A stretch of DNA of 63,792 nt, the filler included, from Chlamydiales bacterium (lineage in GTDB: Bacteria > Chlamydiota > Chlamydiia > Chlamydiales > JACRBE01): NCBI GenBank assembly GCA_016213235.1. It is 6 parts of 6 records of this genome, joined end to end, with 100 filler letters (N's around TTAATTAATTAA, not from the genome) between each part and the next. Parts side by side here need not be neighbours in the genome. Positions count along the whole stretch, not along the records: positions 7,021 to 37,096 come from JACRBE010000025.1; positions 37,197 to 49,636 come from JACRBE010000028.1; 4 more parts are not named here. One strand, 5' to 3'. Of the stretch, positions 36,001 through 42,000 are shown piece after piece (the stretch's first letter is position 1; every line of letters begins with the position of its first letter). Position numbers: made by a program.

Positions 36001-39000
36001 AACTGAAAGAGCTGAATGTTTGGGATGATGATATGTTGGATGATCTTAAATATTATGATGGGTCCATATTAGAAATTGAACGTATCCCAGATGATGTAAA
36101 ACAAATATTTCTCACCTGCTTTGAAATTGATCCTGACTGGGTCATTGCTTGTGGTGCAAAACGACAAAAATGGCTTGACATGGGACAATCTCTCAACCTT
36201 TATATGGCTGAACCAAGTGGTAAAAAACTGCATCAGATGTATATGGCAGCATGGAAGCAAGGATTAAAAACAACCTATTATTTACGCTCACTCGGAGCTA
36301 CACAAATTGAAAAATCAACAACAGATATCAATAAACGGGGGCTTCAACCGCGTTGGATGAAAAATAAATCTGCTTCCAGCAATGTTACCGTTGATCGTGA
36401 TAAGCCAAAAGCATGTTCAATCGGTGGAGAAGGGTGCGAAAGTTGTCAATAATTTAAAAAGGAATAATTTATGGAAACAATTGGAATTGAAAAAAGAGTA
36501 AAGGCAAAAGATAAACGATTAATTAATTGCACTCAAGTAGATGTGAACCAGCTCATGCCTTTAAAGTATCATTGGGCGTGGGAGCACTATCTCAATGGTT
36601 GTGCAAATCATTGGATGCCTACAGAAGTGCCGATGGCAAAAGATATCGAGCTATGGAAATCTGGCAAACTATCGGAAGGAGAACGTCTTCTGATCATGCG
36701 AAACCTGGGATTCTTTTCTACTGCAGAGAGCCTCGTTGGTAATAACATTGTGCTTGCTATTTTCAAGCATGTGACAAATCCGGAAGCTCGCCAATATTTG
36801 CTCCGTCAATCATTTGAAGAGGCTATTCATACTCATACCTTTCACTATATTGTAGAGTCGCTAGCCCTAAATCCTGGCGAGGTCTTTAACATGTATAATG
36901 AGATACCTGCTATTAAGGAAAAAGACGACTTTGAAATGCGTCTTACGCAATACATTGTGCAAGATACATTTAATACCTCTACCTTTGAAGGGGCCCAAAA
37001 ATTCCTGGAAAACCTGATTGGATACTACATCATCATGGAAGGTATTTTCTTCTATAGTGGTTTTGCTATGATTTTATCGCTTCATCGACAAAACAANNNN
37101 NNNNNNNNNNNNNNNNNNNNNNNNNNNNNNNNNNNNNNNNTTAATTAATTAANNNNNNNNNNNNNNNNNNNNNNNNNNNNNNNNNNNNNNNNNNNNATGC
37201 CTCATCCACGCTGTCAGCATTCAATCTGAACCAAGATCAAATTCTCATTAATCTAATAAATAAAATAAACTTTTAACGGGGATATTTCTATCCCATACAC
37301 TTCTTACCTTCACCTTTTCTTCAACTGTCAATATATCATGGATAATCTTGATAGATTATTGTTTCTTTTACCGAAATTTCGATAAAGAAGCCTAGATCAT
37401 AGTGAAAAATGATTATTTTACGCAATTGTTTTTTACATCTTTTTTGTGAACGATAGAAAACAACTAATCCATTTGTGAAAAAGGAAGAAAAAAAATATAT
37501 AGAGAAGAGGATACTAACAAGGTAATATGATGACAAAAAAGCGTATTTTAATACTAGGTGGTGGTTTTGGTGGTATTTATACTGCGATACAACTCGAAAA
37601 GCTATTAAAGCGCTCCCAAGACATAGAAATAGCGCTTGTTAATAGGGAAAACTATTTTGTTTATCAGCCCATGCTTGCTGAAGTAGTTGGAGGATCTGTT
37701 GACATACTCAATACCGTTAGTTCTATTCGACAATTGCTACCTTCTACTAAGTTGTTTTTTAGGGATATTGAAGATATTGATATTAATAATCAGATCGTAA
37801 CGCTTAGTCCTCAATTTTCCCATACTCCTTATCGATTAAACTATGATCATCTGATTTTATCTTTAGGAAATGTAACTGATTTTAGAGGGATGCCAGGATT
37901 ACATGAGCATGCGCTTCCCTTTAAGAATTTAGCAGATGCATTAACAATTAGGAACCAAGTAATTGATGCTATAGAAGCAGCCTCTGTGGAGCAAGATCCT
38001 GTGTTAAAGAAACAATTGCTAACATTTGTTGTGGCAGGTGGTGGTTTTTCTGGCACAGAAGTAGTAGCAGAAGTAAATGATCTTGTAAGAAGCATGATAC
38101 GGCACTACCCTGAAATCAATCCTAGCGAAGTGCGTGTGATTCTTATTCACAGTAAAGACCGTTTGATGGATAGAGAACTCAGCCCATCTCTTGGTATTTA
38201 TGCTCAGAATTTACTTATGAAACGAGGAGTAGAGATCTTCTTTAATACTTGCCTTATTGCTGCATCACCACAGGAGGCCATTACAGATAAAAAAGGTTCA
38301 ATAAAGACAAAGACAATTGTCTCCACTGTACCATCCTCTCCTAATCCACTTATAGAATCTCTGTCTCTTCCAAAGGAAAAAGGGAAAGTAAAAACAGATA
38401 AAACGATGCTGGTAGAATCAATGAAAAATGTATGGGCTATTGGAGATTGCGCTCTAATACCACAAGAATCGGGTGGTTTTTGTCCTCCTACAGCACAATT
38501 TGCAATCAGAGAGGCAACTAAGCTCGCTTATAATATTGTTGCAACAATTAATAATAAACCAACAAAGAATTTTAGTTTCAAAGCACTTGGAATGCTCGGC
38601 GCCCTTGGACATCATAGCGCCGTAGCAGAATTGTTTGGTGTTTTTAAATTCTCCGGATTTTTTGCATGGCTCATGTGGAGAGCTATTTATTGGGTAAAAT
38701 TACCTGGTTTTGCGCGAAAAATCAAAGTAGGAGCGTCATGGTTTTTGGATGCTCTTCTTCCAAGAGAGGCTGTTCAACTTAAAATTCAAGAAAGCCAGGG
38801 CATTGCTTCCCTACATTTTGAAAAGGGAGAAATTATTTTTAACGAAGGTGATATTGGAGATTATTTATATATCATTGTTGATGGTAGTGTAGAAGTTCTC
38901 AAAAAAACAAATGGAACAGTCAAACAAATTGCGACCTTATCTAAAGGAGAATATTTTGGAGAGCTAGCGCTGCTTAACAAAAAAGAGAGATCTGCTACGA

Positions 39001-42000
39001 TTCGATGTTTAACACCAACGAATGTGCTTGCCCTCCGAAAGAGAGATTTTAGTTTACTAATAGCAAATTTCCAAGAATTAAGAAAAAATATTGAAGAGAC
39101 TCTTTCCATAAGACAAAAATAAATCTTCTTATCTCCTTAAACAGATGACCCCATTTCCATCAATAGCTGTGCTGTGTCTTGATAACAAGTCAATATTACA
39201 ATCTGCTATTTTTACCATTTCAATAAACTCCACCGCAGACAAAAGATGAGTCTTTTCAAAAAGAAGATTTTGCTCATGATAGCTATCTACTAGAATCGGC
39301 AAAGCAATGTGCAGCGCTTTTGCTATAGATTCCGATTGTTTTACACCAATTGTTTGGTGTTGCAGTAGCCTTCGTAAAAATAAGGAGAAATTCTTTAAAT
39401 CAGACATGGATTGTTCTTGATTAAAGACGTCTATCACCCTATCTAAATCTAGTGAATTTAAACTAAGCAATGCATCTGCTATCATAAACGCCTGTTTTTT
39501 ATCAAAAAGATGCATCATCATCGACAATTTTATTACTACTTTATAAAAAGGATCCTTGTCATTTAACCCAAGCAGGGTTGCATGTTCATGCATATATTGG
39601 TCATATACATCCTCATATGAATGATCTTTGAGTAAAATAACGATATTTTTTGCATGTATCCATGCTAGGTGAGTAGTTTCTGTATAACCAATAAATGGGT
39701 AGAGCAGATATTGCTCTTTGTCATAGGTATGCTGCAATAGTCCGATTAAAAAACAACAATCGATATAATCCATCTGACAATCACATACGATAGACTCTTG
39801 GCACTGTTGAAAAGCATGCATGCCCTCTTCTAATGAAGCAATTTTTTCTAAATACTGAAAAGAAAGAACAGTAGACAACATGCACTGTTCCAAAGAGGAT
39901 AATTGGCTGGTATATAGATCTTTTAGATTCTCATCTTCTAGCATTAAAATAAAAACAGCTTCTTTTAAGAAATGAGATAAAGAAATAGTCCCCAGCTGCT
40001 TAGATGCATGCGAAAACAGCTGCTGCAGCTGACAAAAACTATGCCAAGACAAGCAATCTTGGGGGCTTTGTTGCATTGCAATCAATGCATAATCTTCATA
40101 TCTTCCTTTTTCTAAAAGATAAAGTGTAATCAACTGATTAAAAAAGGTTTCTCTCTTTTTTTCATTAAGAAATGCCGTTTTATCCCCTAGTTGTTTTTGC
40201 ATGCATTCTTTTAATGATGTATAAGGGTCCTGGCATGTTATAACATCTTGTATTAGATGATGTTTTGTTTTTGGATAAAACACCATAGTTAAAATAGATA
40301 AAATAAATAGAGGAACAATAAAACGTTGCATTTTCAACATTTGTTACATGAAAATACAAATTTTAGGCCTTTAATGAAAACAATGCAAGGTTGCTGAGCT
40401 TCTCTGCTATTATTTTGCACTGATCTTTTCTTATGTTATTTAATATTAATGCATTTAGGCATACTGTTATTGGTGACACCACATTTTTAATATAAAAATC
40501 AAAACATAAAAATCTTTTGTATTATTTCTTTCTTGAAATCCACGCGCAAAAAGTATATTTATTATAGTTAAGGACTTTATTTCTTAATACATAGGAGTAT
40601 ATCATGAAAGTCATAGATATTATTGCGGCTATCTTATTAATTATCGGTGGTTTAAACTGGGGATTAATGGGTATTAGCAATATGAATTTAGTAGATAATA
40701 TTTTCGGTATGTACACTGTTCTTTCCCGTATCATTTATATTTTAGTTGGTCTTTCTGCTGTTTATTATATTTTTCAATGGAAAGCCATTTCTGTACGTTG
40801 TAAAAAATAATTCCGTTTAAGAGAAGAGATTTATCTCTTCTCTTTTTTTTTATCTTTTTTCCTATACAATCTTCTTTTATTGAATATGGCCCTTGTATGA
40901 TTCACTTTGCTAAAATCGAAGAAATAAAAAAACAGATGCAAGAACTTGGCATTAAAGAAGATGATATTGAAGAAAAATTCATTTTAGGATCTGGACGAGG
41001 CGGTCAACATCTGCAAAAAACACATAGTTGCGTACAGCTAATGCATATTCCCTCTAAAATAGAAGTTCGTTGTTTTGTATCAAGAAATAGAGAAGAGAAC
41101 AGGTGGATTGGAAGACGTCTTTTATGTGAAAAATTCACCCAGATGTTTTTTCCTGAAAAAAGCAAAAAATTGCAAAAAATAGAAAAAATCAAAAAACAAA
41201 AGCAAAAATCCAAAAAACGATCTGCCGAAAAATATCAGAAACAATCTAGCAATTAATGTGTTATAGTTATTTTTTTAATAAAAATTAAAACAACATTTTG
41301 ATATAATTTTTAATTATAATTTAACATATTGCTTATATGATTAAACCTCTTGACACAACAGCTCCAAAAGAACCACTACCTGTTCATTCTAAGAACATTA
41401 CGATCGGCCTCCATCGGTTAAATAATAGTGGATTGATTACAACAATAGCATTATATGCTCTTACAGCCATTGCGAGCTTTACAGTTATTGGCAGCATCTT
41501 TTGGCTCTATTTTCATTCTAAATTAAAAACAAAACAAGTTGGCATTCAGTTCTTTGCATCTATTTTTCTTACTGCTTTAGCCCTTATACCAATTGTTGGG
41601 TGGGGTATTTTATATGGGGTAAAACAATATTTTATTTTCCATAAAGAGCAAAAGATAGCTTTTCAAGAAGAACTAGCGGTCCTTGGATTAGAGCAATTAA
41701 GGGCTGCATTAAATGATACTGCATCTTCTGCAGTGCCTGCATTATTAAAAGAGCCTTACGATGAGCTGGCACATGAAATAACGGATAAGCAAGGACCTTT
41801 TTTTGATCGTTTTTTACTTATTCGCAGCCAATTGGACCAATTAATTAAAAACCAAGAATTTTTGGATGTAAAAGCAACAAACCCTCTTAATCCATTTATT
41901 CAACATATAGAAATATTAGCCTATACCATGAGAAATCGATGTTTATCTGCTACAGCATTTGAGCATATTGGACAATTATATACTTCTTATGTTGAAAACA

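Follow-up and report, generated by a model that had tools for sequence, protein, structure and literature searches.

Does a second messenger act directly on a respiratory dehydrogenase in environmental chlamydiae and, if so, on what kind of enzyme? The question is raised by one gene in the window analyzed here (the whole stretch of 63,792 nucleotides, from a Chlamydiales bacterium, assembly GCA_016213235.1), in which a flavoprotein body resembling type II NADH dehydrogenase (NDH-2) is joined to a C-terminal cyclic-nucleotide-binding (CNB) domain (Table 1). Bacterial cAMP acts on respiration mainly through transcription factors, and no DNA-binding domain follows the CNB domain of the fusion. 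In its 530-residue form, whose numbering is used here unless marked otherwise, the gene occupies G000:C9:331-1923 and is the first open reading frame of at least 80 residues listed on its contig. The start given in an earlier note on this locus, 37530, is a genuine ATG but the second of two; the first adjoins it at 37527 and yields 531 residues. In 531-residue numbering, the Pfam matches are Pyr_redox_2 at 6-329 (2.1e-33), NDH2_C at 355-413 (4e-7) and cNMP_binding at 430-513 (4.3e-23).

Table 1. Features of the fusion gene, in window positions; residues follow the 530-residue form.
Feature	Position	Strand	Basis
ORF for NDH-2-like flavoprotein with C-terminal CNB domain	37527..39122	+	531 aa from first ATG
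FAD pyrophosphate motif GxGxxG (G10-G15)	37557..37574	+	G10, G12, G15 invariant in 148/148
NAD(P)H pyrophosphate motif GxGxxGxE (170-177)	38037..38060	+	G170, G172, G175, E177 invariant in 148/148
H207-S208 at cofactor-selecting position	38148..38153	+	His in 120/120 listed homologues
S265-T-V-P268 at NDH-2 WxxG position	38322..38333	+	Alignments
GD motif at flavin (G305-D306)	38442..38447	+	Invariant in 148/148
Quinone-site motif AQFAIR	38493..38510	+	A322, Q323, A325, R327 in 120/120 listed homologues
Pair of amphipathic helices at the C terminus of the body (377-390, 394-409), probable monotopic membrane anchor	38658..38756	+	DSSP on model
Conserved linker (410-428)	38757..38813	+	V415, Q416, G424 at >=90%
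CNB domain, beta roll with B and C helices (429-529)	38814..39116	+	Pfam, model
Beta2-beta3 loop GDxGD	38847..38861	+	G443 in 120/120, D444 in 119/120 listed homologues
Phosphate-binding cassette F476-A489 (G477, E478, R487, S488)	38955..38996	+	Alignments
R528 on C helix	39111..39113	+	Invariant in 148/148; also 120/120 listed

The fold of the body is that of an NDH-2. An AlphaFold-type model of the fusion superposes on C. thermarum NDH-2 with a Z score of 46.7 and an rmsd of 1.9 across 384 residues; FSP1 scores lower, at 34.9, as does sulfide:quinone reductase at 34.4, and the canonical bacterial structures (C. thermarum 4NWZ/5KMR, S. aureus 5NA1 and mycobacterial Ndh 9MQY) score 42-47 at 24-30% identity. 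With these enzymes the fusion shares the glycine motifs, the catalytic glutamate, the GD motif, a variant of the quinone motif and the amphipathic anchor helices, and it also keeps the YD motif of the FAD site (Y105-D106). According to the available part of PMC5299459, the accepted quinone motifs are AQxAxQ, AQxAxR or APxAxQ, with the AQxAxR variant found in 15% of NDH-2s. The catalytic residue E172 of the S. aureus enzyme is matched by E177 of the fusion. The hydrophobic moments of the C-terminal helices are 0.31 and 0.53, and no transmembrane segment was detected in the fusion, the highest 19-residue hydropathy being 1.44. Thus, among the features by which NDH-2s are recognized, the fold with two dinucleotide-binding domains and amphipathic membrane helices at the C terminus is present, whereas WxxG and the acidic NADH-selecting residue are not. 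The description of the protein in the earlier note as a complete NDH-2 therefore does not hold, since WxxG is replaced by S-T-V-P and the Glu or Asp of canonical enzymes by His; the fusion is an NDH-2-like variant rather than a canonical member.

These two replacements bear on what the enzyme may turn over. In the accessible text of PMC5299459, the Trp and Gly of WxxG are conserved in 99% and 100%, respectively, of 1762 NDH-2s, and P268 of the fusion aligns with that glycine (NDH-2 G264) and, by count along the alignment, with G244 of FSP1, where the portions available of PMC10516921/PMC10896247 describe glycine as essential. Turnover of NAD(P)H is consequently not assured. Among 471 distinct full-length fused proteins, Trp occurs at position 265 in one, and 283 have Pro at position 268; the cassette is intact in 282 of these. 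The Trp is absent from 70/71 fused representatives versus 18/68 unfused ones; the idea that its loss co-evolves with the fusion was rejected, however, because the tree places both in one ancestral clade and their covariation thus amounts to a single event. One fused protein outside that clade, P0281, retains the Trp. At the cofactor-selecting position, H207-S208 aligns with Glu198 of C. thermarum NDH-2 and with His174-Ser175 of human FSP1, a histidine that confers equal use of NADH and NADPH in the available part of PMC10516921. This suggests that the fusion uses both cofactors, which we consider reasonably likely, though a single residue is an unreliable predictor of cofactor according to what is accessible of PMC11670749.

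The altered loop leaves room for the reading that the fusion is a cAMP-regulated flavoenzyme whose donor or acceptor differs from NAD(P)H and quinone, or whose turnover is very slow and whose main part is that of an integrator of redox state and cAMP. The second, weaker NDH-2 match in every fusion genome (a canonical one in the genome under study), which could cover ordinary NADH oxidation, and a tandem paralogue with degenerate motifs at one locus (L085) point the same way. Against this, the NAD(P)H, cofactor-selecting, GD and AQxAxR motifs and the membrane helices are all conserved, and human FSP1 (AIFM2), which shares the His-Ser site and likewise lacks the Trp of WxxG, is an active NAD(P)H:quinone reductase (PMC10516921, available part); in the alignment, ancestral tetrapod FSP1 likewise has Cys in place of Trp. 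FSP1 differs from the fusion in keeping the glycine, in its other C-terminal domain, in the lack of a CNB domain and in overall fold (Z about 35). On this evidence we regard that reading as unlikely, and the same quinone reductase chemistry is predicted for the fusion with good confidence.

The CNB domain carries the marks of a working nucleotide receptor. The intact cassette reported in the earlier note is borne out, F476, G477, E478, R487 and A489 being invariant in 120/120 listed homologues and in 148/148 aligned sequences. The best sequence matches of the domain are the CNB domains of the MloK1 and SthK channels and of PKA and PKG, which likewise have a canonical cassette, a loop Gly-Asp and a C-helix Arg; there the output is a pore or a kinase, whereas here it is a flavoenzyme. 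R487 and S488 are in register with R307 and S308 of MloK1, and R528 falls on residue 348 of MloK1 if the ungapped match is extended by four residues. We take MloK1 R348 to be the capping residue, and G443-D444 presumably corresponds to Gly169-Asp170 of PKA. This Gly-Asp of the beta2-beta3 loop is described, in the accessible part of PMC2246266, as an allosteric relay whose evolution is coupled to that of the cassette Arg. In a sister fused clade, the cassette Arg occurs in 0/118 proteins and the loop Gly is absent from the five commonest residues (115/118). A single-sequence model of the domain reached a pLDDT of 42.6 and was discarded. MloK1, which has Arg-Ser at the matching positions, binds cAMP at 68 nM and cGMP at 499 nM, and its S308V variant binds cGMP more weakly (PMC9468011). 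Position 488 is Leu in 29/120 listed relatives and Ser, Thr or Asn in 76/120; as Leu occurs there and the MloK1 substitution weakens cGMP binding, cAMP is favored, and its binding by the fusion is very likely on these sequence grounds.

The source of the ligand points in the same direction. The two class III cyclases (g00151, g00467) and the second NDH-2 without a CNB domain (g01408) named in the earlier note were found in their places in the genome. In Chlamydiota, a class III cyclase accompanies the fusion in 59/60 fusion genomes as against 111/241 genomes without it, a co-occurrence inflated by kinship, and 35 of those 111 have no PF00027 match at all; these cyclases therefore have other outlets. 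In 52/60 of its genomes, PF00027 matches nothing but the fusion. All 22 sampled cyclase domains have the two metal Asp residues, the ATP-selecting Lys, and the transition-state Asn and Arg, with Thr at the second site, which we take to indicate class IIIb. The Lys versus Glu rule for ATP or GTP selection in class III cyclases comes from PMC4215837. Hence, although the cyclases proposed earlier exist and co-occur with the fusion, their suggested cGMP product does not fit the adenylate-type domains sampled, and given that the fusion is usually the sole PF00027 match, the ligand is probably cAMP rather than cGMP. No CpdA-type phosphodiesterase was identified; there are two metallophosphoesterases, neither above the NCBIfam cut-off.

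Binding need not mean control of catalysis. The domain could bind nucleotide but govern assembly, membrane attachment or a partner, or its ligand could be host-derived cAMP or cGMP. The relatives in several phyla often add CBS, FHA or TPR domains, and also kinase or AhpC domains, as is typical of signaling scaffolds; the residues at 488 in most listed relatives would tolerate cGMP; and no cyclase was matched in G219, a fusion genome that is 90% complete. The fixed position of the domain, the conserved linker and the complete relay (G443-D444, R528) nonetheless suit direct coupling, and with cyclases in nearly every fusion genome, all adenylate-type where sampled, we find this alternative quite unlikely. 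The linker had been described as disordered, but with 148 rows no segment of the model falls below a pLDDT of 50, the lowest linker block averaging 65, and its codons show the same degree of constraint as those of the domains in 4/4 pairs. Complex prediction of body (1-417) and CNB domain (420-530) with FAD and cAMP gave no interface (score 0.00 in both runs), which counts neither for nor against contact. Mean-field coevolution over 499 fused rows, with an effective number of 270, picked up the strand pairings inside the domains, with interdomain pairs scattered and without a cluster. Allosteric coupling of the CNB domain to the enzyme is, in our judgment, likely.

Taken together, we lean slightly towards the fusion being a cAMP-gated, non-pumping NAD(P)H:quinone reductase. 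As a monotopic membrane flavoenzyme of NDH-2 fold, it would pass hydride from NADH or NADPH to FAD and on to the quinone pool without pumping ions, at a rate set by cAMP on its own C-terminal domain, the cAMP being supplied by the membrane-bound sensor adenylate cyclases of the cell (dCache or HAMP type). By analogy with PKA and Epac, which we assume to apply, activation through relief of an inhibited apo state would be the more likely direction, and the remodeled S-T-V-P loop, which lies where the NAD(P)H site holds the adenine, might mediate gating. The enzyme may thus serve as a signal-gated redox valve beside the canonical NDH-2 and Na+-NQR; NqrB, CydA and COX1 are present in the genome, and the membrane transhydrogenase PntB was not found there or in 5/5 relatives. 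MqnA/D were likewise not found in the genome or in 5/5 relatives, and the quinone pathway was not identified.

A cAMP-gated quinone reductase could also work outside energy conservation, either maintaining a membrane antioxidant quinol, as FSP1 does, or reducing a demethyl-naphthoquinone precursor, the step that NdbB/NDC1 perform in naphthoquinone synthesis. The FSP1-like His-Ser site, a second UbiA-family gene in 4/4 relatives and the database name 'Demethylphylloquinone reductase NdbB' carried by P0036 (a label of the source) are compatible with such a role. The overall fold and C-terminal helices, however, are closer to NDH-2 than to FSP1, and no quinone-synthesis or stress genes occur among the named recurring neighbors, which makes it decidedly unlikely. 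No conserved operon surrounds the fusion, the recurring chlamydial neighbors scanned being EamA, MatE, Dus, transaldolase and MFS genes, and no cyclase adjoins it among the named groups of recurring neighbors (from 100 loci the 30 largest groups were listed, and a selection was scanned). A Pycsar- or CBASS-type system is defined by an effector gene adjoining its cyclase in a defense locus; the neighbors scanned offer nothing functional that would suggest an operon or defense context. Promoter and terminator scans returned 8 sites against 6.9 by chance and 2 against 1.5, respectively.

That the two domains form one protein, as first proposed, is upheld by the single open reading frame, the Pfam and fold matches, and purifying selection on both body and CNB domain. 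PF07992 and PF00027 occur together in 120/120 listed homologues (of 6891 matches among 8000 candidates scored), and one public contig, which may be the assembly's own source, spans the junction (38636-39006) with zero differences. Although the assembly is fragmented and 81% complete and some members of the fused clade have lost the CNB domain again, hundreds of independent fused homologues and the junction-spanning contig refute an assembly artefact, and the CNB domain has changed as little in amino-acid sequence as the body in 4/4 pairs, which leaves artefact or functionless passenger together highly improbable.

The fusion occurs in 60/300 Chlamydiota genomes from 13 families, and the same architecture appears in several other phyla, so that its supposed conservation through environmental Chlamydiota was both too broad and too narrow. 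We also rejected replacement of a standalone chlamydial CNB protein by the fusion: in the four examples the conserved gene in front is a different one, and their cassette reads F-G-D/E-E, which marks another family. Bact_Pyrredox (Kannan et al. 2007, PMC2246266), set apart by its description in the available text, carries its CNB domains in tandem after the oxidoreductase domain and follows a different consensus in the cassette, whereas the fusion has one CNB stretch only, after the NDH2_C membrane domain. The closest precedent that we found for a cAMP-gated NDH-2 is the Ca2+ EF-hand NDH-2, such as N. crassa Nde1, whose built-in ligand sensor is likewise proposed to tune activity (PMC5299459, PMC11670749, accessible parts); there the EF-hand is inserted between GD and helix 7, while the cyclic-nucleotide domain is C-terminal. 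No fused solved structure emerged from sequence or fold searches, whose match lists the body dominates, and no prior paper on an NDH-2/CNB fusion was found in open-access text.

The value of the finding is tempered by the fact that the family is widespread in bacteria and already visible in Pfam annotations. More tentatively, a sensor cyclase and the fusion might make up the entire cAMP circuit in roughly a dozen families of environmental chlamydiae with small genomes, and a CRP-type regulator would be absent: an external cue would raise cAMP, open an NAD(P)H site in which Pro replaces an invariant Gly, and release uncoupled NADPH and NADH oxidation. Such a directly second-messenger-gated respiratory dehydrogenase could be the prototype of a multi-phylum family of NDH-2s whose fused sensors also respond to adenylate charge (CBS) or phosphorylation (FHA). 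The near-invariant motif lost here bears on NAD(P)H binding by NDH-2s, a drug-target family, and in 52/60 genomes the fusion gives a concrete target to adenylate cyclases that would otherwise lack a receptor. If true, a cAMP-gated NDH-2 would mean protein-level control of respiration within seconds; as the fusion is usually the only recognizable cAMP receptor in these small host-associated bacteria, the messenger may control respiratory electron entry directly.

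Our analysis centres on a chlamydial gene that joins a flavoprotein body resembling type II NADH:quinone oxidoreductase (NDH-2) to a C-terminal cyclic-nucleotide-binding (CNB) domain; no ORF of 80 aa or more is listed ahead of it on its contig. Residue numbers follow the 530-aa form, counted from the second ATG. Pfam recognizes Pyr_redox_2, NDH2_C and a single cNMP_binding stretch in the product, and among the 25 of 28 NCBIfam matches listed none lies above its cut-off. The single-gene fusion described in the earlier note is upheld by the single ORF, these domains and a public contig that covers the junction with 0 differences. 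The reading we consider most likely, at slightly better than even confidence, is cAMP-gated NAD(P)H:quinone turnover without pumping. In this mechanism, a sensor cyclase would make cAMP, the C helix would close over the phosphate-binding cassette, and the change would be relayed via the conserved linker to the flavoenzyme, whose NAD(P)H:quinone turnover would rise and drain NADH and NADPH. By analogy with PKA and Epac, activation seems somewhat more probable than inhibition. A ribonucleotide reductase small subunit gene (36471) was rejected as a neighbour of the fusion, as it is cut by the contig end with the N spacer between.

Features of the window and of homologous loci
Record	Feature	Position	Strand	Remarks
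Window	Type III polyketide synthase gene	12214-13356	-	Chalcone synthase-like
Window	Ribonucleotide reductase large subunit	32112-36452	+	1446 aa, two ATP cones; LAGLIDADG-like match (residues 788-831) within an insertion that interrupts the barrel domain, suggestive of an intein
Window	N spacer joining contigs	37098-37196		Separates the 36471 gene from the fusion gene
Window	Fusion ORF	37527-39122	+	531 aa; 530 aa from second ATG at 37530
L010 (G293:C90)	178-aa piece, NDH2_C end and whole CNB	3106-3639	-	Adjoins intact fusion gene; partial duplication
L054-L056	CNB fused to Rce1-like CAAX protease	~2770-4080	-	Upstream of fusion gene, three loci
L065, L069, L072, L074, L076 (acidobacterial)	Gene for a small CNB protein, plus genes for c-type cytochromes, one of them multiheme	~2000-4850		Divergent from fusion gene
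L083	CNB domain and malic enzyme in one ORF	1034-3208	-	Beside NDH-CNB gene; second cNMP-fused redox enzyme
L085 (acidobacterial)	Tandem NDH-CNB genes	2151-4811 and 4950-6608	+	Upstream gene (887 aa) with degenerate catalytic motifs and intact cassette; proteins P0361 and P0363 look alike
L089-L094, L096	Unfused WxxG sister enzymes			Upstream of cytochrome b, Rieske and heme-copper oxidase-like genes, seven loci (named by reading translations)

The AlphaFold2 model of the protein, built from 148 rows (mean pLDDT 87.9, pTM 0.82), has no segment below 50, so that the disordered linker described earlier is not borne out. Its fold matches NDH-2 of C. thermarum (Z 46.7, rmsd 1.9, 384 residues), with lower scores for the quinone reductase FSP1 (Z 34.9) and sulfide:quinone reductase (Z 34.4). 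Of the NDH-2 motifs given in PMC5299459, the protein retains GxGxxG, YD, GxGxxGxE, GD and, for the quinone site, AQxAxR; the body ends in two amphipathic helices, and no transmembrane segment was found in the protein. At the NADH-selecting Glu site of NDH-2 stands His207-Ser208 (His in 120/120), aligned with His174-Ser175 of FSP1, whose His is tied to equal NADH and NADPH use (PMC10516921), though a single residue is described as a poor predictor of cofactor (PMC11670749). S-T-V-P replaces WxxG, which is conserved at 99% and 100% in 1762 NDH-2s (PMC5299459). Because ancestral FSP1 likewise lacks the Trp, its loss alone need not abolish activity; the Pro aligns, by our own count along the alignment, with FSP1 G244, called essential in PMC10896247, and Gly to Pro is the odder of the two changes. 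Given the departures at WxxG and the cofactor site, we file the protein as NDH-2-like and not as a canonical member: of the "complete NDH-2" proposed earlier, the fold and most motifs stand. It is unlikely that the remodelled site uses another substrate pair, the replaced WxxG pointing towards it and the kept quinone motif away from it.

In the sensor half, G477, E478, R487, A489, G443 and R528 are invariant in 120/120 close relatives, in agreement with the intact cassette noted earlier. An ungapped match to the CNB channel MloK1 sets R487 on R307 and S488 on S308 and, extended by four residues, R528 on residue 348, which has a capping role; G443-D444 corresponds to PKA Gly169-Asp170. Position 488 is Ser in 49, Leu in 29, Thr in 19 and Asn in 8 of 120, so the hydroxyl that would serve cGMP is dispensable at this site. 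The Gly-Asp relay is described as co-evolving with the cassette Arg (PMC2246266), and in MloK1 substitution of R307 abolishes cAMP responses, S308V weakens cGMP binding, and affinities are 68 nM for cAMP and 499 nM for cGMP (PMC9468011, PMC4811770). A sister fused clade (P0121-P0240, relatives of locus L080) has the cassette Arg in 0/118 proteins (two short ones of 120 dropped), Gly absent from the five commonest residues at the loop site (115/118), an invariant W-G-E, and Gln-Arg at the cofactor site. To judge from these residues it could respond to a different ligand and favour NADPH, and it is a natural contrast to the intact-cassette fusions.

The two class III cyclases reported earlier are present in the genome; one carries a dCache domain, the other HAMP. 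All 22 of the 22 cyclase domains sampled (20 from 18 other fusion genomes, taken from the best matches listed, and these two) have the two metal Asp, the Lys that selects ATP, and the paired Asn and Arg. Under the Lys versus Glu rule for ATP/GTP selection (PMC4215837), the "cAMP or cGMP" of the earlier note probably narrows to cAMP, with cGMP disfavoured as a product of this genome's cyclases. The fusion protein is the only PF00027 match in this 81% complete genome, and a custom profile over 1923 ORFs agrees. Full-length fusions occur in 60/300 scored Chlamydiota genomes, from 13 families, and are the sole PF00027 match in 52/60. A cyclase is present in 59/60 fusion genomes versus 111/241 others, and in one mixed family in 4/4 versus 13/42, figures that kinship inflates. 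Counting against a closed one-to-one circuit, 35/111 cyclase genomes without the fusion (family f10 and others) have no PF00027 match, and no clear phosphodiesterase was found; in those 35 there may be an unrecognized cAMP receptor, or the product may be aimed at the host. That the CNB domain governs assembly, or that the ligand is host-derived or cGMP, is improbable, the cyclase residues and co-occurrence favouring endogenous cAMP.

The respiratory context includes NqrB, CydA and a heme-copper oxidase subunit, and the second NDH-2 without a CNB domain, already noted, is canonical with WxxG and Glu. NuoD was not found in this genome, PntB and MqnA/D neither there nor in 5/5 more complete relatives, and a second UbiA-family gene is present in 4/4 relatives and was not found here. 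The fused enzyme is an extra predicted electron entry point, not the housekeeping one. A non-respiratory quinone role, to which the likeness to FSP1 would lend itself, is no more probable than the reading of the CNB domain as an assembly factor.

Both domains occur in 120/120 homologues listed (60-76% identity, the protein itself excepted), nearly all chlamydial where a source gives a taxon name. In 4/4 codon-aligned pairs the rate of change in the CNB domain and in the linker does not exceed that of the body; in one pair, amino-acid differences are 5%, 6% and 7% versus 28-53% synonymous change. The fusion is genuine and maintained, and a passenger CNB domain or an assembly artefact is very improbable. 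Its conservation through environmental Chlamydiota, asserted earlier, extends to 60/300 genomes in those 13 families, but the fusion is neither general in the phylum nor confined to it: 20 full fusions among 80 named loci belong by record titles to Acidobacteriota, Chthonomonadaceae, Actinomycetota, Gammaproteobacteria and Verrucomicrobiae, and further matches are named Blastocatellia, Nitrospiraceae, Deltaproteobacteria and Chloroflexi. A full NDH domain is present in 139 of the 150 best representatives (50% identity), 71 of them fused and 68 unfused, and many of 30 long representatives scanned carry extra domains (CBS pairs, FHA, TPR, DoxX, AhpC). Of 471 distinct fused proteins, a single one has Trp265, 327 have the intact G-E...R cassette, and 283 have Pro268, 282 of these together with the intact cassette. 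FastTree, run on 95 selected NDH domains drawn from those 139 and supplemented with the loci and two canonical outgroups, places every fused protein except one in a single clade (0.98 support), some members of which are secondarily unfused or truncated; four unfused proteins without Trp lie outside it. Chlamydial proteins nest among other phyla within the Pro268 subclade, which suggests that their fusion was perhaps acquired from outside the phylum.

We found no earlier account of the NDH-CNB fusion in the open-access literature searched; the supplement text of PMC5299459 does not mention it. A tandem-CNB pyridine nucleotide oxidoreductase family, listed in PMC2246266, is generic prior art. 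The chlamydial case merits attention because the fused enzyme is usually the sole recognizable predicted cAMP receptor there.
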